Positions 1 through 9,662 are shown, numbered from the stretch's first letter. The stretch: 64,000 nucleotides of DNA from Longimicrobiales bacterium (GCA_965202985.1 CBDBCF010000001.1:1952001-2016000), one strand, 5' to 3'. Translations and numbers: made by a program. The notes: generated by a model not told the origin, from the letters alone.

Positions 1-783
1 CGAGGAGCTGCTGGCGGACTTGAAGATGCCGGGCGCGCTCGAAGCGCTTGCCGACGTGCTGGCCCGCGTCGACGGCGGCGCAGCGACGGCGGCCGAAGCG
101 ATCGAGGAGCTGCTGGCGGCGCAGATCGCGTTGCGCAACAGCCGTCGGCTGGCGACGGCGATGCGGTCGAGCCGTTTGCCGTCGGTCAAGACGCTCGAGG
201 AGTACGACTTCGCGTTCCAGCCGTCGGTGAAGCGGGAGCAGATCGTGTCGCTGCACGAACTGGGGTTCGTGGCACAAAAGGAGAATGTCGTGTTCATGGG
301 CCCGCCGGGCGTGGGCAAGACGCACCTGGCGATCAGCTTGGCCGTCGCGGCGGCGCAGGGCGGTCGGCGTATCTACTACGGCACGCGCTCCGATCTCGTG
401 GAGTCGCTCGAGGAGGCTCGGGCGGCCGGCTGCCTCAAGCAGCGGCTCAAGACGCTGACGCACCCGTCGCTGCTGGGGTCGACGAGATCGGCTACTTGCC
501 GGTGAGCCGGAGCGCGGCGACGCTGTTCTTCCAGCTGATCGCCCGGCGCTACGAGCACGCCTCGACGGTGGTCACCTCCAACAAGGGGTTCGAGGAGTGG
601 GGACGGATCCTGGGCGACGAAGTGATGGCGGCTGCACTGCTGGACCGGTTGCTGCACCGATGCCACATCGTCAACATCCGAGGCAACAGCTGGCGGACCC
701 GGCACCATGCCGCCGAGCTGGCCAAGGCGCTGGAAGGTCGGCCGTCGGACGACGGCCCCGGAGACGAAGGGAGCGGATCGTGA
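1..783 (+). pseudogene. istB: IS21-family helper ATPase IstB, split by a frameshift near 476 (5' end may lie outside the window)
   Basis: KTLEEYDFAFQP, Walker A GPPGVGKTHLA. Walker B (LLxVDEIGYLP) is broken across ORFs 20..505 and 496..783. The second ORF has TSNKGFEEWG and ALLDRLLHRC. The shift sits at a GGGG run, so a sequencing error is possible. Confidence 0.92.
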
Positions 784-961: not shown

Positions 962-1664
962 ACCCACTCCGCGTTCGACCCTTCTTCGGACGCTTCCCGT
1001 CCAGCTTCGCCAACTCCGCGCGCGTCGGCGTCTCGATCCCCGACGACCGCGCCAACTCTCGCAACCACGCCTCGTAGCCCGTGCCCCCGTCCCGACGCAC
1101 GATCGAACGCATCGCCGCGTCCGCCTCCAGCGTCGTTGAGTCCACGCCCAACGTCCCGACCCCCAGCAGCCCTAAATCGTCCAGCAGCCTCAGCACGCGG
1201 CCGAACGCCGCGACGTGTGCCTCCACGCTCGACCGCTTGCGCGTCTTCGACAGGCTCGAATGGTCCGGCGCGGGTTCTTCGTCAGCTCGTACCCCAGGAA
1301 CGCGCGCAGCGAAAACGAGTCCCTGCAACGCCAGGCGATGCCTCGCTCCGACGAGATGCCCTCCAAGTACCCCACCATCAGCCCCGGGAAGTACACCCCG
1401 GAGGATTCCTCGGCCGGCCCCCGTTGCCCGCGCAGAACTCCGCGCACACCTCCTCCTCGAACTTGTCGAAGCTGTCCTCCCGCAACAGCTTGTCCAGCGC
1501 CCGATAGAACGGATGCTCGGTCACGCCGAGCTCGCTCGTCGCCACGACCAGCGCCTGCTGGTGCACGCTCGGACGCTCGCCTACCGTCCTTCGAGGGGAT
1601 CGTTCCGTCACTCCAATCTAATCCCAACCAATCGCCGGCTCGTAAGGACTTTATCCACGGGCTG
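962..1664 (-). mobile_element. IS1182/IS5-like transposase remnant, frameshifted and truncated by the IS21 element
   Basis: Three frames give HPFYRALDKLL, GVYFPGLMVGYLEGISSERGIAWRCRDSFSLRAFLGY and PDHSSLSKTRKR...GVDSTTLEADAAMRSIVRRD. The putative end CAGCCCGTGGATAAAGTCC (minus strand from 1664) abuts CTAG at 1665-1668. Confidence 0.85.
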
Positions 1665-2537
1665 CTAGTCGATAGCACGTATGATCAGATCCATAATATC
1701 TTCCAACTCCTTACGGTTGAGCACACTCAGCTCCCGAACCGCCTGAACCGCACTCAAATTTCTGCACGCACGAACAAGCCACTGAGCATTCGCTAGTCGT
1801 TGATTGCCACTCAACTGGATGGTCTCGGCGAGTCGTGTAACAAAGGCCTCTCTAATCTCATGCGATCCCATCACCGAATTTCGTGATACAATCATAACGA
1901 CCAACTTTTCCCAGTATGTCTTGCTCAACCGGACTAAGTCTCGAACCTTCTTCGTCAGATCGGCGTCGTTTCGACCTACCTGAACCGCAAGGCGCTCTCT
2001 CCACCAAGTTCGGGCAAATGGGCAATCCACGTAAACCGTTCGATTGCCTCTCGCTTCCGGCAGACCACTAAGCCGCCGGAGAGCCGTCCGAACGCAATCA
2101 TCCATCATCTTCGCACGCTTCTTCCCGGCCCTCCGAAGCGCCCGGTCAATTCGTTCGGCACCACCGGCGTACGAGCCATTGGCCGCCAGGTAGGCCGCCT
2201 TGATCCGGCCCTGCCGAATGTGATGACAGGTGATGTTGCCCCAGAAGGACGATCGGCATGCGATCCGCGGAGTGAGCATCTCCCATACGTCGTAGAGCAT
2301 CAGCTGGGTGTCCACGGGAGGCTCCCGGTATTCCGTTTCCGTAAGGGGATGTGGACAGAGGGAAACGGTCCCCTTGCCGGTCACCGGTATACGCCCGATA
2401 AACTCCAGAAATTGGTGGTCTTCCTGCAAAGCATACAAGAATTCTTCTTGAAGCTCGCCACCCTTCTCTCGCAGAAGATCCCTTCGGAGCCTCGAGAACG
2501 CTGCATTGTCAAGCTCCTTGTTTCCCACTTTAGCCAT
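1665..2537 (-). CDS. Hypothetical protein, DUF6339-like (290 aa), last gene of the five-gene operon
   Basis: Intact ORF starting 3 nt after the previous stop. LYDVWEMLTPRIACRSSFWGNI and FARTWW resemble my recollection of the DUF6339 motifs LTPxxAxDxRLW and LARLWW. The family call is tentative. Confidence 0.6.
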   Translation of the reverse strand: MAKVGNKELDNAAFSRLRRDLLREKGGELQEEFLYALQEDHQFLEFIGRIPVTGKGTVSLCPHPLTETEYREPPVDTQLMLYDVWEMLTPRIACRSSFWGNITCHHIRQGRIKAAYLAANGSYAGGAERIDRALRRAGKKRAKMMDDCVRTALRRLSGLPEARGNRTVYVDCPFARTWWRERLAVQVGRNDADLTKKVRDLVRLSKTYWEKLVVMIVSRNSVMGSHEIREAFVTRLAETIQLSGNQRLANAQWLVRACRNLSAVQAVRELSVLNRKELEDIMDLIIRAID

Positions 2538-2540
2538 TAA

Positions 2541-3386
2541 CTACATTTCTCCGTTGTCGCTACTGTCAAGCTGCTGATGTGGGTACATGGCCGTCGCTAC
2601 CTCTTCAGGCCGGAACTCATCGTCCATCCATCTAGGAAGGTCTTCATCGTCGAGGTATTCTGCCAGTGCAACAAGATGTCGATCCGTCTGCCAGCGCTCT
2701 TCTTCGCGAAAATCACGCTGAAGTAACGCAAAGCAGGCCGTCACTATGTGCGTCATGATATGATTCCGAATATGGCTTCCCGTACTGTATCGTAAAAAAC
2801 GATGCAAATCGGTGCTTAAGGTCACTACAAACCGAAATGGTTGGCTTTCTGCGTCCACCATAAACGTACCATCTGACAAGTCTCCATCCTGTTTGAGATA
2901 CAACAGATGCAATACCGTAGGCTTCATCCGCACGACAGGTCCGATCGCTATACGGGAGCCTTTGTCGATTTTCACCGTTCGACCCGTCCACGAAGGGTGA
3001 ACATCATCCCGATCGGAACACAACGTCAGCGTTCGTGACTGAAATGCTATCACCATTGGAGTAAGCAACGGCGATTCTCCCATGTCGTCAGCACTCCAGG
3101 ACACCTCCTGTGTAGCCTCCGCCGAGAAGTGTACTCTCCGGTAGGACGACACAGGCGATGACACTGCGCAACAATATCTAGCGGCTCCTTCCCTAACTAA
3201 TCGTCGAACCAATTCAGCGTTCTGCATATCATGCTGCAACAAGAACGACGACCGTTCCTTTCCTGGTCTGAAGTCGATAGCATACTGGCCACTCGGATAC
3301 GACATGTTCCCTGCTTCTAGAACGGGATACCGTCTGGATTTCGTTGCGTTCGCCTCGGAATTCGCGAGCGCAACGATCTGAGTCAT
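2541..3386 (-). CDS. Conserved hypothetical protein (281 aa)
   Basis: ATGA overlap with the upstream ATPase. N-terminal YPVL and LVREGAARYCCAVSSPVSSYR patterns recall proteins usually encoded just downstream of this type of GHKL ATPase. Confidence 0.7.
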   Translation of the reverse strand: MTQIVALANSEANATKSRRYPVLEAGNMSYPSGQYAIDFRPGKERSSFLLQHDMQNAELVRRLVREGAARYCCAVSSPVSSYRRVHFSAEATQEVSWSADDMGESPLLTPMVIAFQSRTLTLCSDRDDVHPSWTGRTVKIDKGSRIAIGPVVRMKPTVLHLLYLKQDGDLSDGTFMVDAESQPFRFVVTLSTDLHRFLRYSTGSHIRNHIMTHIVTACFALLQRDFREEERWQTDRHLVALAEYLDDEDLPRWMDDEFRPEEVATAMYPHQQLDSSDNGEM

Positions 3387-5329
3387 CGACCTCCTCCTTC
3401 TTTGATTCCCGGCGCTACCTCAACCACGAGACTGGCGCTAGGCGCCTGGACGGCGTCAAAATATCCTGGTAGCGAGTAGCTTGCTTCCACCGTGACCTTT
3501 TGGCCTTTGGCAAGGGAGCCCAGTTGGACGCCAACGACTTTGCCGTTCTCCATCAGCAGCACGCAGCCGTCCGCGGCCGTACCGTCTACAAGAACATCGC
3601 ACAATTCTACGTCGGCCTTGGCGTCGCGAACTATACGGTCGCATGTTGAATCGATATTCTCGTCCACAAACAGGCGCAACTCCGCGGATCTACACTGGCG
3701 ATGGCATGTGACCTCAATGCGTCGTCGGTCAACTGACACGGGCACCGTGACGGCGCTGAATAGGGACTCGACGCTCCGCCTCCTGCTTCGACCCGATGGA
3801 TCTACCGTGCTATTACTAGGCTCGCGTCTTCTGGATCGCCCTTGCTGTGACCGAACAGGGTTCCTCTCAGGGCTCCTTTGGCCAACAGCCACTGGTGTGG
3901 CCCAAGAGTCACTGCCACCCCCAAAGTCAAGCACGAGAATGTCGTCCGGACTAAAGGCAGTGTCGGAGACTTCATTGGTATTGTCCAGCAGCCAGTCACG
4001 TAACTCTCCAAAGGCTTTTTTGATGGCCACTCTATCCTCTTTGCCTAAATTTTTGACATTGAGCTTGTCGTGAAGGGGGCCTTCGGCCTCTCTGACTAGG
4101 CGATACAGTTCTGTCGTATCGTCATCGAGCAACAAAAGCGCGTGAAATGGTCGACGATCTCGAAATTTGTAATAAAATCCTGGAATGCCGCCCTTCGGCG
4201 TCTTGTCGTCGGTGATCCACATTCCGTTTCTGAGAAGATCGACCCTAGGACTCCCGGATTGCTTCTGGAGCAGCCGTATTCGCAACGAACCGTGCGACGT
4301 CTCGACCGGAAAATAATCTTTCCCTCGTGTGAGAGCGGTGTAGCTGTCATAGGCTTTCGAACCGCTCAGAAACGCCTTCGATCGTGTTTTCTGTCGGTTG
4401 TCGGTTAGCACGCCACCAATATTGCTGTGGTCAAGGGTCCGAATCCCCGAATCGAGGTGGGTGGCATCGCCTGGGTCCTCGACATGTACAACAAGCTGTC
4501 GTTCGGCGATGGCTTGGAAGAAATTGCACGCCGCAGCCTCCGACACCATGTCCCAGAGAGATCGTGACTCTCGAAAGTTGTTGAAGGAAGGAATGATGAC
4601 GACGCTCCCATAATCCGCATCAGCCAGCAAATCGCTTAGTTGATCACGGATGACCTTAGGTATGTTTGAGCCACGAGCGCAATCGAACAGCTTGCCATTA
4701 CGACCGTTGCGAAACCCCTTGATCAGAAACCCGTCGCCGGAACAGACGTGTGTGCTTGCCATATCGTGTGAGGCATGTGAAGCAATGACCGCGTGACCGG
4801 AACCGATTGTCTCGCCTGTATTGAGGAGGCCTCCATAGAGCAGATAACGTAAGTCCGACGCAGGGATAGCAACAGAATGTCCGTTTCCGTACGTGCCGGA
4901 GGCACCGCCACCCTTGGCGCTTACCCCGTCGCTGAGGAGGGCGTTCATGCGTCGGTCGTCAAGCCCTATACCGTTGTCAAAGATCGACAGTACGCTCTGC
5001 GTCTCCTGTCGCAGCGCATGATCAATCGTCCTTATCACTGAAGAGGCTGTTGGAGCCAGACTGCCACCTGCCATTTCCTCCTGCATCTTAACGGCAGCGT
5101 CAAACGCCCCCTCGTAAGCTCTAATGCCCGGAATGTCGTCCGTGGCCACCGTGGCGAGCCGAAAGCGGACTATAGCTTTGTCCCGGCCGGCCTCGCAGGC
5201 TGCGTCGAACGAATTCTGGACAAGCTCCCGTACAACCGCTGCCGGGCGAAGGTCGTCAAACGCCGCAATCCCGGCTGGGTTGAATCCCTTAATGTCGCCG
5301 GCGGGGCCAAACCGCAGACGAACTGCCAC
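3383..5329 (-). CDS. GHKL (HATPase_c/Hsp90-MutL-like) ATPase-domain protein (648 aa)
   Basis: N box VVRELVQNSFDA, G1 box IFDNGIGLD, G2 box GGGASGTYGNG, G3-like GSVVII. A charged linker and a beta-rich C-terminal domain follow. Confidence 0.82.
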   Translation of the reverse strand: MAVRLRFGPAGDIKGFNPAGIAAFDDLRPAAVVRELVQNSFDAACEAGRDKAIVRFRLATVATDDIPGIRAYEGAFDAAVKMQEEMAGGSLAPTASSVIRTIDHALRQETQSVLSIFDNGIGLDDRRMNALLSDGVSAKGGGASGTYGNGHSVAIPASDLRYLLYGGLLNTGETIGSGHAVIASHASHDMASTHVCSGDGFLIKGFRNGRNGKLFDCARGSNIPKVIRDQLSDLLADADYGSVVIIPSFNNFRESRSLWDMVSEAAACNFFQAIAERQLVVHVEDPGDATHLDSGIRTLDHSNIGGVLTDNRQKTRSKAFLSGSKAYDSYTALTRGKDYFPVETSHGSLRIRLLQKQSGSPRVDLLRNGMWITDDKTPKGGIPGFYYKFRDRRPFHALLLLDDDTTELYRLVREAEGPLHDKLNVKNLGKEDRVAIKKAFGELRDWLLDNTNEVSDTAFSPDDILVLDFGGGSDSWATPVAVGQRSPERNPVRSQQGRSRRREPSNSTVDPSGRSRRRSVESLFSAVTVPVSVDRRRIEVTCHRQCRSAELRLFVDENIDSTCDRIVRDAKADVELCDVLVDGTAADGCVLLMENGKVVGVQLGSLAKGQKVTVEASYSLPGYFDAVQAPSASLVVEVAPGIKEGGGR

Positions 5330-5332
5330 CGG

Positions 5333-6502
5333 CTATGCCCCCACCAAGGTGCTAGCCATCGCAACGGCATCTGTCAACACGGCCGATGCTGTGGCAACAT
5401 CGTCTTCGGTAGTGAAGCGCCCCAAGCTGATTCGTATTCCCGTGGACGCCCGTTCGTAGTCGCAGCCAAGCGCCATGAGTACCCTAGAGGGCTTTGAGGC
5501 TACGGACGTGCAGGCGGCACCAGTCGAAATGGCGATCCTGTGGGAAACAGTGGAGAGTAGCTCCGTACCCCGAAGGCCGGGGAACCCGACATTGAGGTTG
5601 CCGGCTATGCGATGATGTCTGTGGCCGAACAGTCTCATGTCTGGACGACTGTCGCAAAGCTGGTCCGCCAACCAGCGAGAGTAACGAGACATGCGAGCAA
5701 CGTCTGACTGCCACTCGATTGCTGCCAGTTCGCTGGCCTTGCCTAGTCCCACGGCCAGCGGAACAGGAACGGTGCCAGGTCGAAGGCCTCGTTCCTGACC
5801 GCCACCGGCCAGAATGGGAGCGATCGGAGTTCCAGAACGCACGTACAGAGCCCCGATGCCCTTGGGACCGTACATCTTGTGTCCTGAAATACTGAGTAAA
5901 TCCACATTCCAGGCGTCGACGTCAATCTCCATCCGGCCCGCGGCCTGCGTTGCGTCACTGTGGAACAGTACGCCGGCTCGCCGGCACATTTTTCCAATCT
6001 GTTCGACTTCTTGAAGCACGCCAATCTCATTGTTGGCCGCCATCACCGACACGATCAGCACTTGGTCGTCCAAAGCCCGCTCGAGGTCGTCCATGTCGAG
6101 GATGCCGTCACGGTCCACTGGTAGAACGACCGAATCGATGTTGCGTTGATCGAGATGAGCGACCGTCTCCAGCACGGCGGAATGCTCCGTGGCAACAGTG
6201 ACGACCTTACGACGCTGAGGGTACCGATTTGCGTTGACGACTCCCTGGAGGGCGATGTTGCAGGACTCGGTTGCCCCAGCCGTCAACACAATCTCTTCGT
6301 CGTCTGCATTGACAAATCCCGCGACGAGTGCGCGCGCCTTCTCAACTTCGCCGAAAGCATCCCATCCGTAGCCGTGTCCGTTTGAATGCGGATTACCGTA
6401 ACGAGTGCGAAAGAAAGGTAGCATGGCCTCGAGGACACGCGGATCGAGCGGCGTAGTCGCCTGGTTGTCGAGGTAGATCGGATGGCTCGGCACGCTACTC
6501 AC
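5333..6502 (-). CDS. Cysteine desulfurase, IscS/DndA type (~389 aa)
   Basis: IYLDNQATTPLDP, YGNPHS, SGHKMYGPKGIGALY (PLP lysine), RPGT, STGAACTS (catalytic Cys). The GTG at 6502 overlaps the upstream TGA (GTGA); 6493 is an alternative start. Confidence 0.95.
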   Translation of the reverse strand: MSSVPSHPIYLDNQATTPLDPRVLEAMLPFFRTRYGNPHSNGHGYGWDAFGEVEKARALVAGFVNADDEEIVLTAGATESCNIALQGVVNANRYPQRRKVVTVATEHSAVLETVAHLDQRNIDSVVLPVDRDGILDMDDLERALDDQVLIVSVMAANNEIGVLQEVEQIGKMCRRAGVLFHSDATQAAGRMEIDVDAWNVDLLSISGHKMYGPKGIGALYVRSGTPIAPILAGGGQERGLRPGTVPVPLAVGLGKASELAAIEWQSDVARMSRYSRWLADQLCDSRPDMRLFGHRHHRIAGNLNVGFPGLRGTELLSTVSHRIAISTGAACTSVASKPSRVLMALGCDYERASTGIRISLGRFTTEDDVATASAVLTDAVAMASTLVGA

Positions 6503-7875
6503 TCCGTGCAGTCGCAGGGCAGGAGGCTCTCCGAGTACTTGGGAAGAACCTTTCCGTTGGACTCCTCCAGCTTCTCGTACGTCATCCCTTTCGCGCCGAA
6601 GAAGCCGATCGTCGTACTCTCGGGGTTCCCGGTGATCTTCCGGCCCTCCTCTTTCAGATCTCGGCCATACCTTTTCTCCATGCGTACCCACCAACGGATA
6701 TCGGACGGCGTGTCTCGTAGCGAACCGAAATCGGCTACGTCTTCTTCCGCAGCTGAATGCATGCGTTCATGCACATCTTGGAGATTGGACATCCCCTTCA
6801 GGAAGCAGTACACGCAGTTGGAAAGGCTTCCTTCGCCTGGTAACGACAGGTTCCATTGCTGCTGGTCCCAAAACGCGTTTACGTCGTCGCGAGCTATTGC
6901 CATGTCTGCCAGGGGCATGTAAACATGCTCGCCTTCGTAGCCGGAGGAACCCGGACCAGAATTGCGGGCTGAGACGCGGTTGACACGCTTTTCTTCATCC
7001 GCCCGAAGGCCGACGAACGCGACATATTCGACACCGCCGCCTCCGAACGAAACGCGATTTCCGTAGGCCTTGCCGTCTAGCAAGGGGTTGGCGAAAGGGA
7101 CCCACGCCGGACAGTAGTCTCTGTACCGCTGCGTAGGACGGACGTGCGGACGACCGCGGGAATAGGCACGCTTCTTCAGGAATATCTTTCTCGGAACCTC
7201 GCCATTGTTATTCTTGTGCCGCTTGTACAATGTGTCATCGTCCAGACGGGACTCGGTCCCATAGTGTCCAAGACGAGGGATCGCATCCGTACCAGCTAGC
7301 CAATCGCGAAGGAAATGTCGTGTGGCTTCAAGTTTCATGCTTTGAGTGCAGATGCGGCTAAAGACGTTCGGAACATAGCCGGAATAAGATATCAGCTCCT
7401 CAAAGACCTCTCCGCGCCAGTGAAAGCCATTCGGGTTGTCTTCGGAACGGGGCTGGTCATTGACTAGGCGGTAGGCTGGGAGACGAGTCCATTCCCCGTG
7501 TCGAGCGTCTTCGTACGTTTGGTATTCGATCCAGAAGAAAGGTATCCCGTACCGATTCGAAGCGCGCATGCAGTCTTGAACGAATCGATACGTGTCGGTG
7601 TGCTCAGCTGAAGTATTATTGAAGACGATCACGTCACCGCGGCTCGGCTGAAGAATCTTGTTCTCCAACAACACAAACAGCAACATGCCGCTAGAGCGCC
7701 CGCCCGAGAACTTCACGACGTGCGGCAAGTCCAGATGTTTCTTGGCACGGTAGCGGAAGCGGTACTCTTTGGTGGGATCGTGCCGTGGGGGCGGCTTCCG
7801 CAACTTGCCGGAGACGACGAGCCGTGGGACGGCCTGGAGCGTGAGCTGCGAATCGCTGCCGTTCCGCTCTCGCAT
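6499..7875 (-). CDS. PAPS-reductase-family / DndC-like PP-loop (adenine nucleotide alpha hydrolase) protein (458 aa)
   Basis: C-terminal half of the 910-aa ORF, ATG at 7875. PP-loop VKFSGGRSSG, FNNTSAEH, RICTQSMK, VGLRADEEKR, YMPL, SNCVYCFLKG and terminal PCDCTE. Confidence 0.85.
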   Translation of the reverse strand: MRERNGSDSQLTLQAVPRLVVSGKLRKPPPRHDPTKEYRFRYRAKKHLDLPHVVKFSGGRSSGMLLFVLLENKILQPSRGDVIVFNNTSAEHTDTYRFVQDCMRASNRYGIPFFWIEYQTYEDARHGEWTRLPAYRLVNDQPRSEDNPNGFHWRGEVFEELISYSGYVPNVFSRICTQSMKLEATRHFLRDWLAGTDAIPRLGHYGTESRLDDDTLYKRHKNNNGEVPRKIFLKKRAYSRGRPHVRPTQRYRDYCPAWVPFANPLLDGKAYGNRVSFGGGGVEYVAFVGLRADEEKRVNRVSARNSGPGSSGYEGEHVYMPLADMAIARDDVNAFWDQQQWNLSLPGEGSLSNCVYCFLKGMSNLQDVHERMHSAAEEDVADFGSLRDTPSDIRWWVRMEKRYGRDLKEEGRKITGNPESTTIGFFGAKGMTYEKLEESNGKVLPKYSESLLPCDCTE

Positions 7876-8091
7876 TAGTCGGCGACCTCGGGTAGGCGTG
7901 GTGGAGAGAAGAGTTCCGCTGCTGGGTCTTTCATGGCGTGCATGGTCACTCGTAGTACGATGGCACGGCGCTCCGTTCGTGGCAAGTGGCGCGAGTGGTA
8001 CCGGTCCTACCGAAGGCCGACCTTCCAAGCTCCCCTTCCAGCGGCTAGCTTCCGAGGTCCCCGCCATCTTCTCCCCGCCGCCAAGTTGCCC

Positions 8092-9297
8092 GTGCCGCCC
8101 ACCCACCCCGGCGTCCCCCTTCCCCGGTCCGCGCCCTTGGACCCCGCCGAGACGGCCCGCTACGCCCGGCACTTGGTGCTGCCCGAGGTGGGCCGCGACG
8201 GCCAGGAGCGCCTCAAGGCCGCCCGCGTGCTGCTGGTGGGGGCCGGCGGGCTGGGGTCGCCGGCGGGACTGTACTTGGCGGCGGCGGGGGTCGGCACGCT
8301 GGGCGTGGTGGACCCGGACGTGGTGGACGCCACCAACCTGCAGCGCCAGATCCTGCACGGCACCTCGGACCTGGGCGCGCCCAAGGTCGATTCCGCCAGG
8401 CGAAGGCTGGCCGAGGCGAACCCGCACGTGGCCGTCGAGACGCTGGCCGCCAAGCTGACGGCGGACAACGCCCTGGGCGTCGTGGCGGAGTACGACGTGG
8501 TGGTGGACGGGAGCGACAACTTCCCCACGCGGTACTTGGTCAACGACGCCTGCGTGCTTTCCGGCAAGCCCAACGTGTACGGGTCGGTCTACCGGTGGGA
8601 GGGGCAGCTGTCGGTCTTCGGCCTGGAAGGGGGACCTTGCTACCGCTGTCTGTTCAGGGAGCCGCCCCCGCCGGGCGCGGTCCCCAACTGCGCGGAGGCC
8701 GGCGTCTTCGGCGCGCTGCCGGGGGTGATCGGCGCGGCACAGGCCATGGAGACGATCAAGCTGGTCCTGGGCGCCGGCGACGTGCTGGCGGGCCGCCTCC
8801 AGCTCTTCGACGCGCTGGCGTATCGGTGGCGGGAGGTGGAGGTGCGCCGGGACCCCGCGTGCCCCGCGTGCGGCGATCGTCCCACCGTGACGGAGCTCGT
8901 CGACTACGACGCGTTCTGCGGCGCGGCCGGCAACGGAGCTGGCGCGAGCGCGGGCGCAGCCGACGACGAAGACCAAGTCGGCCGCGTCCACCCCGGCGAG
9001 CTTGCGGGCGTCATGTCCGGCGAACCCCGGCCCTTCCTCTTGGACGTGAGGGAGCCGTTGGAGTGGAGGGCGATGAACCTGCGGTCGCTGGGCGCGGTGC
9101 TGGTGCCCAAGGGAGAGATCCCCGAACGCCTGCAGGAAATCCCCAAGGACCGCCCGGTGGTGGTCTACTGCCACAGCGGCGTGCGCAGTCTGGACGTGGC
9201 GCGGACCCTGGCCGCCGCAGGCTACGATCACGTGCGGAACCTGGAAGGCGGGATCGCGGCGGTGCTGGAAGAGACGCCCCAGATGGTCGGTTCGTGA
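8092..9297 (+). CDS. moeB: Molybdopterin-synthase adenylyltransferase/sulfurtransferase (ThiF/MoeB + rhodanese, MoeZ type)
   Basis: RYARHLVLPEVG, GAGGLGSP, TNLQRQ, DGSDNFPTRY, CYRC, CPAC, rhodanese LDVRE...YCHSGVRS. Start is approximate. Confidence 0.93.
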   Translation: MPPTHPGVPLPRSAPLDPAETARYARHLVLPEVGRDGQERLKAARVLLVGAGGLGSPAGLYLAAAGVGTLGVVDPDVVDATNLQRQILHGTSDLGAPKVDSARRRLAEANPHVAVETLAAKLTADNALGVVAEYDVVVDGSDNFPTRYLVNDACVLSGKPNVYGSVYRWEGQLSVFGLEGGPCYRCLFREPPPPGAVPNCAEAGVFGALPGVIGAAQAMETIKLVLGAGDVLAGRLQLFDALAYRWREVEVRRDPACPACGDRPTVTELVDYDAFCGAAGNGAGASAGAADDEDQVGRVHPGELAGVMSGEPRPFLLDVREPLEWRAMNLRSLGAVLVPKGEIPERLQEIPKDRPVVVYCHSGVRSLDVARTLAAAGYDHVRNLEGGIAAVLEETPQMVGS

Positions 9298-9662
9298 CCG
9301 ACGGCCCGCGCAGCCCGGCCGGCTCGCATCCCGGCATGCCGGCCGCCGACGCCCCCTGGCGCCGGACGCTGGTGCGGCTGGCCCAAGCGATCGACAACCG
9401 CCGCGAGGTGCGGCTGCTCTACGGCTCCAGCCTGAGCGTTCGCTTGGTGCTGCCCCACGCCCTGGGCGTCAGCCGGTCCGGGAACCCGGCCTTGCTGGCC
9501 TGGCAGCAAGGAGGCGGCGCGAAGGAGGCCGAGACCGGCTGGCGGCAGTTCAAGTTGGACAAGATCGCCGCCGTGGACGTGTCGGAATCGACGTTCCGCG
9601 CCCCGGCGCCGGGCTACGACCCCAAGAACCCGGGCCTGTTCGGAGTCGTCAAAGCGATCTGA
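9294..9662 (+). CDS. Stand-alone WYL-domain protein (~122 aa)
   Basis: GTGA overlap with moeB. AIDNRREVRLLY, RLVLPHALG, LLAWQ, WRQFKLDKI, GYDP match the WYL pattern. Confidence 0.78.
   Translation: MTDGPRSPAGSHPGMPAADAPWRRTLVRLAQAIDNRREVRLLYGSSLSVRLVLPHALGVSRSGNPALLAWQQGGGAKEAETGWRQFKLDKIAAVDVSESTFRAPAPGYDPKNPGLFGVVKAI

Follow-up and report, generated by a model that had tools for sequence, protein, structure and literature searches.

The stretch of DNA considered here, below called the window, comprises 64,000 nt of the genome of a Longimicrobiales bacterium (GCA_965202985.1 CBDBCF010000001.1:1952001-2016000) and carries at positions 1665-7875 an operon of five genes, designated A to E (Table 1), which may represent a new architecture of sulfur-based DNA modification. 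The products are a DndC-like PP-loop enzyme (A), a cysteine desulfurase (B), a GHKL ATPase (C), a hypothetical protein (D) and a DUF6339-like protein (E). These assignments had been proposed in a first-pass annotation, prepared from the sequence alone, and they hold by Pfam, PADLOC, NCBIfam and motif evidence. The same is true of its description of the genes as five intact and co-oriented ones: they run uninterrupted on the minus strand, contain no internal stops, and full-length homologues of all five are known from other loci. The four junctions it listed all agree with the coordinates: A and B overlap by GTGA (read directly in the sequence), C and D overlap by ATGA, and 3 nt separate B from C and likewise D from E. 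The guanine-plus-cytosine (GC) content is indeed lower than in the flanks, being 0.50-0.61 over positions 1501-8000 against 0.67-0.69 leftward and 0.70-0.75 rightward. The cluster is a horizontally acquired, low-GC island, and the five-gene set is far from a chance assembly, since its arrangement recurs in 31 other loci.

Table 1. Genes of the operon and features next to it, in window coordinates
Feature	Position	Strand	Remarks
Gene A	7875..6499	minus	458 aa; motif KFSGGRSS
Gene B	6502..5333	minus	389 aa, counted from the GTG start
Gene C	5329..3383	minus	648 aa
Gene D	3386..2541	minus	281 aa
Gene E	2537..1665	minus	290 aa
IstB (IS21 helper ATPase), frameshifted, runs off the left window edge	1..783	plus	IstB_IS21 in two frames, 1.5e-39 and 2.2e-32
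DUF772 transposase fragment, directly downstream of E	1190..1678	minus	Pfam DUF772, 9.8e-7
ThiF+rhodanese gene (MoeZ-like, sulfur-carrier-activating), right neighbour of the operon	7933-9297	plus	host GC

Protein A is a very divergent member of the PP-loop branch resembling reductases of 3'-phosphoadenosine 5'-phosphosulfate (PAPS), the branch that also holds DndC, SspD and BrxP. In an alignment of 22 homologues the KFSGGRSS PP-loop and five cysteines (C176, C354xxC357 and C454xC456) are invariant, the latter being available as candidate [4Fe-4S] ligands, the trait of DndC and SspD. The AlphaFold2 (AF2) model of A (pLDDT 84.6, pTM 0.88) finds its best matches in an exhaustive VIA structure search among the reductases of adenosine 5'-phosphosulfate (APS) and PAPS (2goy, Z 10.7; 7rge, 10.6; 6vpu, 10.3; others down to 9.8), the top one having a root-mean-square deviation of 3.6 over 186 aligned residues. 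Next come GMP synthetase, CysD, NcsA, TtuA, LarE and TilS with Z of 8-9.3, PP-loop/[4Fe-4S] thiolases among them (the tRNA thiolases NcsA, 8.8, and TtuA, 8.6; LarE within 8.6-8.8). When A is aligned by hhalign with two genuine DndC sequences from relatives (E 0.013, probability 3.3%), the PP-loops superpose and SRICTQSMK of A falls on FRWCTDRMK of DndC. The marks of the superfamily, i.e., an SGGxxS PP-loop, a PAPS-reductase-like fold and a Cys-Thr...Lys motif, are all found in A, which stands outside the DndC, SspD and BrxP families by their own models. The DndC model TIGR03183 (cut-off 290.4 bits) does not match A at E <= 0.01, nor is there a match genome-wide; in PADLOC the SspD match (1e-9) extends over 38 amino acids only, and that of BrxP is at 1e-4. 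At E <= 0.01 A has no Pfam family, PAPS_reduct included, and no NCBIfam family; Foldseek against the PDB gives no match with E < 1e-3, and a sequence search of the PDB returned nothing. The family of A counts at least 1325 homologues in many phyla, none of them with a Pfam domain or an informative name. In our view A is a putative enzyme of DNA modification that inserts sulfur and corresponds in function to DndC, SspD and BrxP.

Protein B is an island-borne class-V cysteine desulfurase, dependent on pyridoxal phosphate and of the DndA/SspA/NifS/IscS type, for which we propose the role of sulfur donor. It gives a full-length class-V aminotransferase match (Pfam Aminotran_5, 1e-79) and is recognised in PADLOC as DndA (1.8e-137) and SspA (3.1e-137); the NCBIfam models of IscS, NifS and DndA all match it below their equivalog cut-offs and do not separate the subfamily. 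The gene is an extra copy, the genome having five other matches (the best with 37% identity), and it is translationally coupled to A through the GTGA overlap. The pairing of two sulfur enzymes, on which the first interpretation of the operon relied, is real in the window but optional in the system as a whole: of the 32 A-linked loci described below, 12 have B in their operon (the window, L001-L003, L005 and L023-L029, in the numbering of our surveys). An optional dndA or sspA is a known pattern of phosphorothioate (PT) systems (PMC10853773, PMC12839542).

In protein C the ATPase part is followed by a linker of basic character and a C-terminal domain that varies. In PADLOC it is matched by PDC-M33A (5e-29), a component of PDC-M33, which we take to be a candidate PADLOC system of untested function. 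The N-box (ExxxNxxD), DxGxG and GxxGxG motifs of GHKL proteins are all found in it: E35, N39 and D42 (in RELxQNSxDA), D118xxxG122 and G145xxG148xG150 are invariant in 19 sequences, taken from both the A-linked branch and the methylase-linked one considered below. No Pfam HATPase family matches C at E <= 0.01, and the PDB profile matches with a relation to GHKL proteins (HSP90, MORC, MutL and PMS2) are all weak (E 0.04-2). In the same 19 sequences E416xxxH420 is invariant as well, and Iyer et al. (2008, PMC2292703) describe an ExxxH motif that follows the GHKL domain as the hallmark of paraMORC2. On these motifs we assign C to the GHKL (Bergerat-fold) ATPases as a PDC-M33A-like protein with a paraMORC2-type ExxxH motif; its likeness to paraMORC2 rests on this motif and on the Dcm/Vsr context of sister loci, judged by the description of paraMORC2.

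As to D and E, both look like non-enzymatic subunits. D matches PDC-M33B in PADLOC (3e-10), and its AF2 model (pLDDT 90.7) shows a beta-sandwich in the N-terminal part and a bundle of helices in the C-terminal one, for which there are only generic FN3/Ig-like fold matches (Z <= 7.2); Foldseek against the PDB finds nothing with E < 1e-3, the PDB sequence search is also empty, and a protein-atlas search gives unnamed clusters only. The sole invariant residue in 41 sequences of D is Pro21, and the protein is probably a fast-evolving, PDC-M33B-like adaptor or specificity subunit without conserved catalytic residues. E matches Pfam DUF6339 (PF19866) with 23.0 bits (E 7.6e-5), under the gathering cut-off of 23.2 bits. 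Among its orthologues 5 of 15 match this family at E <= 0.01 (best 1.5e-8), and the E homologues linked to Dcm do so at 1e-31 to 1e-54. E itself has no PDC-M33C match in PADLOC, while its orthologue in L001 matches this model at 2e-7. By shared alignment and hidden Markov model (HMM), E is clearly homologous to the true DUF6339 proteins; a PDB sequence search with it returned nothing, and the protein atlas gave no usable match. Conserved tryptophans and arginines are abundant (W99 and W179 invariant, R150 and R154 nearly so), and E may be a reader of DNA or of the mark. We considered either protein as the nuclease of the system and rejected this for the lack of conserved catalytic residues, the fold of D also speaking against it. 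Prediction of a D + E complex gave 0.69, 0.01 and 0.01 in its runs, which argues neither for nor against binding.

Conserved synteny in other genomes, for which the first-pass annotation had proposed to search, is found: A-C-D-E recurs in many genomes and metagenome contigs, giving a total of 32 A-linked loci from many phyla, and A stands with the C-D-E trio in 32 of the 32 loci where both could be seen. A pattern scan of genomes, one per species, yielded 18 loci, 14 of them with the gene order A-C-D-E on a single strand; of the other four, three end inside A or C and one is a fragment of A. Two of the 14 show signs of decay, one having a DDE transposase between A and C (L009:11477-12673) and the other an A gene split into two open reading frames (ORFs; L016:236-1530). 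The organisms of this survey include Alpha- and Gammaproteobacteria (several of them thiotrophic or sponge symbionts), Limisphaerales, Nitrospina and Nitrospirales, to which a protein search for A adds metagenome-assembled genomes labelled Gemmatimonadetes, Holophagales and Poribacteria. When metagenome contigs were scanned with a profile of C, 40 loci came up, in 15 of which A adjoins the trio (once in the permuted order C-D-E-A-B). Broader HMMs place D after C in 44 loci, E coming next in 38, the exceptions ending inside or just past C. The genome of the window itself contains a second, divergent A-C-D-E set about 200 kb to the left (G000:C1:1751630-1756505; L021:7630-12505, minus strand), whose A is 41% identical to that of the window and which lacks B; a Fic/DOC protein (SoFic/PDC-S04-like) and a methyltransferase are encoded near it. 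Within the same taxonomic family, the A family occurs in 6 of 71 genomes, the window's genome counted. One of these relatives, G061, has a genuine DndC (343 bits, above the cut-off) along with two A-family copies, one of which has an in-frame TGA; since true DndC and two copies of the A-family system are present in one genome, the two systems are distinct. The distribution is patchy and laterally transferred, and the setting is accessory and island-like, with low GC and with insertion sequence (IS) elements, toxin-antitoxin genes, methylases, Cas1 and AbiH as neighbours.

The trio also occurs without A, in 21 of the 40 metagenome loci. These trio-only loci match PDC-M33A, B and C strongly (in L042 at 7e-153, 4e-61 and 8e-60; canonical PDC-M33 members score 1e-60 to 1e-153), and by such scores the C-D-E proteins of the window appear to form a distant sister branch of PDC-M33. 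In 10 of the 12 trio-only loci with examined flanks a C5 cytosine DNA methylase (PF00145) is adjacent: seven have it immediately upstream of C and in the same orientation, in two it is divergent and accompanied by an MvaI/BcnI-type endonuclease, and in one it is convergent. Of the remaining two loci, L049 has IS elements upstream and EcoRII downstream, and in L058 only an MvaI/BcnI endonuclease was detected. In four Dcm-linked loci a Vsr gene follows that of the DUF6339 protein. This composition agrees with the operons of restriction-modification (RM) systems, with cytosine methylases and Vsr, in which paraMORCs were placed by Iyer et al. (2008, PMC2292703). From these neighbourhoods we read the trio as a conserved core with an exchangeable DNA-modifying enzyme: one branch pairs it with the methylase, the other with A, to which B is added in some loci. 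Since a DNA-modifying enzyme fills the slot of A in the sister loci, they offer the strongest indication at hand that DNA is the substrate of A; the initial idea of a sulfur modification of DNA coupled to a GHKL complex also gains comparative support here, a C5 methylase taking the place of A and B beside the same trio. A full-length gene of the DndB family (Pfam 3.6e-102, PADLOC DndB 3e-110) lies two genes upstream of one Dcm-trio-Vsr operon (L043:1598-2788), and an 8.9-kb metagenome contig (L031:993-8916) carries two divergent GHKL-D-DUF6339 trios back to back with no PP-loop gene visible.

The four loci with Vsr raise the question of whether the trio might serve modification-linked repair, as a MutL-like accessory for the lesions that a modification brings about, the copies with A and B dealing with damage at sulfur sites. 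Besides the operonic Vsr, such a role would suit the functional link between MutL and Vsr, the former assisting the latter at deaminated 5-methylcytosine (cited in PMC2292703), and the lack of a nuclease within the trio. We hold it to be very unlikely: neither Vsr nor another repair nuclease accompanies the 32 A-linked loci, the genes sit in defence islands and are distributed patchily by lateral transfer, and the two divergent copies in the window's genome are typical of defence systems diversified in specificity. The sister branch bears likewise on the question of whether DNA is the substrate at all. Pairs of a PP-loop enzyme and a desulfurase are the rule in tRNA thiolation, and A, which belongs to no curated family, could together with B thiolate tRNA or rRNA or produce a thio-metabolite, its link with the trio being regulatory or fortuitous. 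A linkage of A to the trio in 32 of 32 loci, the replacement of A by a DNA methylase in the sister loci, the recurrence of DNA nucleases as partners (see below) and a patchy distribution, unlike that of housekeeping thiolases, make this the least probable of the alternatives, with hardly any weight in our judgement.

The nucleases in question are provided by two kinds of neighbouring genes. One encodes a DUF262 (GmrSD_N) protein of about 550-610 residues, which separates B from C in L001 and L025 and follows B immediately in L029; in L006 a shorter DUF262+HNH protein comes directly after E. A tblastn search with these proteins revealed a homologue in the window's genome (G000:C1:1948388-1950487; 27.5% identity over 599 residues to the L029 protein; GmrSD_N, 2.6e-16), which is encoded on the same strand as the operon, at a distance of 3.2 kb past E, and lies outside the window, 1.5 kb to the left of its first base. 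Here low-GC DNA resumes: the GC content of this sixth gene is 0.51-0.55, like that of the operon, and that of the intervening IS21 stretch is 0.67-0.72. The four long DUF262 proteins align end to end, with DGQQR in the N-terminal part and HH(I/V)FP..N..N near the C-terminus, which we take to be the His-Me finger of GmrSD/SspE type. The SspE HMMs match only the L029 homologue, weakly (2e-6). The first-pass annotation had seen no SspE homologue, and inside the operon there is none, but 3.2 kb past E there is this DUF262 gene with the architecture of SspE/GmrSD. Given the same strand, the low GC content and the homologues embedded in the operon elsewhere, the island was originally A-B-C-D-E followed by the DUF262 nuclease gene and was later split by IS elements. 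Taken with the DndB gene of L043, the DUF262 genes also mean that ParB-like proteins recur beside both branches of the trio.

The second kind of partner is Pbe, pbeABCD being a named partner of PT modification (PMC9239217). In L028 the operon is followed by a 700-residue protein with helix-turn-helix (HTH) motifs, PbeA (4.7e-155) and PbeC (4e-44), and in L023, up to the contig end, by that HTH protein and an N-terminal portion of PbeA (1e-46). Among nine B-containing loci with readable flanks, four have a DUF262 nuclease as partner, two have Pbe genes and three neither. The HTH protein (L028:6935-9037, L023:9177-11459; 700-760 residues) contains Sigma70_r4 and RNAP alpha-CTD-like HTH motifs and belongs to no PADLOC family; a homologue with 26-27% identity is encoded in the window's genome at G000:C1:2631857-2633329. 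The same genome has, about 280 kb right of the window end (G000:C1:2295530-2296873), matches to the N-terminal half of PbeA (6e-66) in an ORF of 1288 residues, which may encode a Pbe-like helicase.

The partners are of importance for two further alternatives. According to the first, the system would follow RM logic without a nuclease: A and B write the self mark, the trio alone clamps or compacts unmarked DNA in the manner of BREX-like or MORC-like exclusion, and the DUF262 and Pbe genes are independent of it. No nuclease is found in the vicinity of many A-C-D-E loci, the trio by itself figures in PADLOC as a candidate system, a C5 methylase, which needs no helper, is operonic with the trio in seven loci, and the RM operons of paraMORCs (Iyer et al., 2008, PMC2292703) are of the same kind. 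We nevertheless consider such an effector role of the trio rather unlikely, though deserving more attention than any other alternative: no effector activity beyond ATP hydrolysis is readable from C, D and E, the DUF262/His-Me homologues between B and C in two loci are hard to dismiss as chance neighbours, and the two trios of L031 would, in the absence of A, be self-toxic (A possibly lies past the end of that contig). According to the second alternative, the architecture would be the same and the chemistry different, A making a thio-base in DNA or another ATP-activated substituent instead of PT. The scores of NcsA, TtuA and LarE (8.6-8.8) lie near those of the PAPS reductases (9.8-10.7), A is very distant from DndC and SspD, and it stands in for the base-modifying Dcm of the sister systems; against this, its sequence-level family signals are only to the PT enzymes SspD, BrxP and DndC, and the Pbe and SspE-type partners belong to PT systems, so that we regard a chemistry other than PT as unlikely. 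A combination of the two, in which A would write a thio-base and the paraMORC-like trio would read this mark and exclude unmarked DNA without cutting it, as a prokaryotic MORC-type clamp on a new DNA modification, seems to us distinctly improbable.

In comparison with the known sulfur-modification and defence systems, the coupling of A and B to the trio is what appears to be new. PT systems are four in number, Dnd, Ssp, BREX-4 and Tdp, and in the genes of the first three a PAPS-reductase enzyme is paired with a P-loop ATPase, Tdp needing only tdpC (PMC12914056). The absence of DndB, DndD, DndE, SspB and SspC from the locus, stated in the first-pass annotation, is confirmed by negative PADLOC and NCBIfam scans of the five proteins: DndC (TIGR03183), DndD, DndE and DndB were found neither in the locus nor in the genome, and SspB (DUF4007) and SspC (the BrxC-type ATPase) have no PADLOC match in the five proteins, a genome search for DUF4007 being negative too, though weak as evidence, since the control genomes gave no signal either. 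Nor are BrxC, PglZ and BrxL among the five proteins by PADLOC, where the match of A to BrxP (1e-4) is the sole BREX signal.

A close parallel is with SspABCD-SspE, a system of single-strand phosphorothioation with a PT-sensing DUF262 nuclease, where a desulfurase (3e-137 for B with the SspA model) and a PP-loop enzyme resembling PAPS reductases are encoded in one operon with an ATPase and DNA-binding partners (the binding being predicted in the case of the window), and where a partner protein joins an N-terminal DUF262 to a His-Me nuclease (the latter putative here, from the HH(I/V)FP..N..N motif). Unlike that system, the operon of the window lacks SspB and SspC, matches SspD over 38 residues, and has a GHKL ATPase and two proteins of no known fold family. 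DndABCDE with DndFGH or PbeABCD likewise offers DndA-grade and DndC-like counterparts, an optional desulfurase, a modification module often decoupled from, or variably paired with, nucleases, and the PbeA/PbeC genes that adjoin the operon in L028 (in L023, part of PbeA); the difference is that the window has a GHKL ATPase in place of the SMC-like ABC ATPase and none of DndB, C, D and E. BREX type 4 relates to type 1 as our two branches do to each other, keeping an ATPase-centred core and swapping the methylase PglX for the PAPS-reductase-like BrxP, and its desulfurase is also confined to part of the loci (56% in BREX-4, PMC12839542; 12 of 32 here). In our case BrxC, PglZ and BrxL are missing, the core is GHKL-D-DUF6339, and the methylase that is swapped is of the C5 cytosine type. 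With PDC-M33 and the paraMORC2 RM operons, the window shares the homology of C, D and E to PDC-M33A, B and C and the GHKL and ExxxH motifs of C, whereas the canonical loci combine Dcm with, in some cases, Vsr, MvaI/BcnI or EcoRII and lack a PP-loop enzyme, and the models match the window proteins only distantly (5e-29 and 3e-10; no match for E). Finally, the lone PAPS-reductase-type enzyme TdpC of TdpABC can write PT (PMC12914056), and by analogy it is plausible that A, with or without B, could be the whole writer.

The operon had been announced as a candidate new system, which is correct, as far as the literature searched goes, for the coupling of A and B to the trio, but not wholly for C-D-E, which matches the PADLOC candidate PDC-M33. 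What was known before is this candidate, of which C-D-E is a distant sister, and the paraMORC-type ATPases, predicted in methylase/Vsr operons in 2008; what is new is an ATPase core for a PAPS-reductase-like sulfur enzyme in modification-based defence, with a wide but unnoticed distribution. In the literature searched we found nothing on PDC-M33 or DUF6339 and no coupling of the GHKL trio to a DndC/SspD-like enzyme and a desulfurase; GHKL and MORC are unmentioned in the available text of the Dnd reappraisal PMC10853773 and of the BREX survey PMC12839542 (term searches, supplements not covered). The published search for new PT systems required, according to PMC12914056, a P-loop NTPase neighbour and a BLAST E <= 1e-5 to DndC or SspD, and with such criteria would by design miss the A family.

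We propose that the operon represents a new architecture of defence based on sulfur, probably PT, modification of DNA, in which the trio would be the DNA-handling core of the writer and the nuclease would come from partners; we give this reading a probability of roughly one half. The DNA substrate, the sulfur (PT) chemistry, the physical complex and the defence role are what we infer from the anatomy and context of the genes, that is, from what was observed: the genes present, their folds and motifs, their synteny, the swap of the modification gene and the nuclease partners that recur. The system would be a mobile six-gene defence island, five genes of which lie within the window. B would strip sulfur off cysteine as a persulfide, and A would use ATP, by means of its PP-loop, to activate (adenylate) an oxygen of the DNA and then substitute for it the sulfur from B, with the help of its cysteine/Fe-S set. 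The target would most likely be the backbone phosphate and the product PT, as the family signals of A lead only to PT enzymes and its recurrent partners, SspE-type and Pbe, are from PT systems. C, as a MORC-like GHKL clamp, with D and E as adaptor or reader subunits, would form an ATP-driven core which takes hold of DNA, offers it to the modifying enzyme and links the effector to the modification status. Such a role should be generic, since the same core works with a C5 methylase in the sister systems, and would be that of DndD/E, SspB/C or BrxC in known ones. The nuclease would be supplied by variable partners, in the window's genome by the SspE/GmrSD-type DUF262 + His-Me protein, now separated by IS21.

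Several observations weigh against this reading. A lies below every curated family threshold, with neither PAPS_reduct nor TIGR03183 and with an SspD match of just 38 residues, its hhalign probability with DndC is just 3.3%, and the closeness of the thiolase Z-scores to those of PAPS reductases means that, as far as the model goes, base or RNA thiolation would be compatible with its fold. B is absent from 20 of the 32 A-linked loci. Neither a nuclease fold nor a conserved catalytic residue is found in D or E, DUF262 or Pbe partners occur in only seven loci, and defence genes cluster for other reasons too; in the window's genome, about 3 kb of IS DNA part the DUF262 gene from the operon, and the system may have ceased to function as a unit. 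That a C5 methylase does not depend on a helper ATPase favours the trio as an effector over the trio as a part of the writer. The embedded nucleases and the strict linkage of A to the trio favour, on the contrary, its being part of the writer. Should the mark be confirmed, this would be the fifth architecture of sulfur DNA modification and another case of defence cores swapping methylases for sulfur-inserting enzymes; it would also give a function to the PDC-M33/DUF6339/paraMORC2 trio and open a tractable bacterial model in which to study how a MORC-like ATPase is linked with an epigenetic mark.

As for the flanks of the island, the first description of it as bounded by IS remnants applies to its left side, where the IstB gene and the DUF772 fragment lie, but not to the right one, where the neighbour is the ThiF+rhodanese gene. 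Even on the left the IS interrupts rather than bounds the island, for low-GC DNA resumes beyond it: the IstB stretch has host-like GC and separates the operon from the DUF262/His-Me gene outside the window, and the DUF772 fragment belongs to the IS remnants by which the island is split. No tRNA gene or informative flanking repeats were found at the island edges. The ThiF+rhodanese gene was considered as a member of the system and rejected, given its host-like GC and the absence of a ThiF neighbour from the related loci; that a sulfur-carrier-activating gene stands directly beside an island of sulfur enzymes is probably a coincidence. Just past it, at about 9366-9579 on the plus strand, there is a WYL-domain match (Pfam 1.8e-5, PADLOC WYL 6e-7) inside the ORF 8595-9662, a region of high-GC DNA in which gene boundaries are ambiguous.

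As to mobile elements, a profile search of viral contigs with A gave no relative, and tblastn of A against phages and plasmids retrieved only short PAPS-reductase/NinC-like proteins with about 30% identity and no operon. The phage relatives (hits H2-H16), of about 280 aa, are encoded in early regions, and on a Bosea plasmid (L065, 6120-8295) a short relative of A lies between the genes of thymidylate synthase and dihydrofolate reductase.

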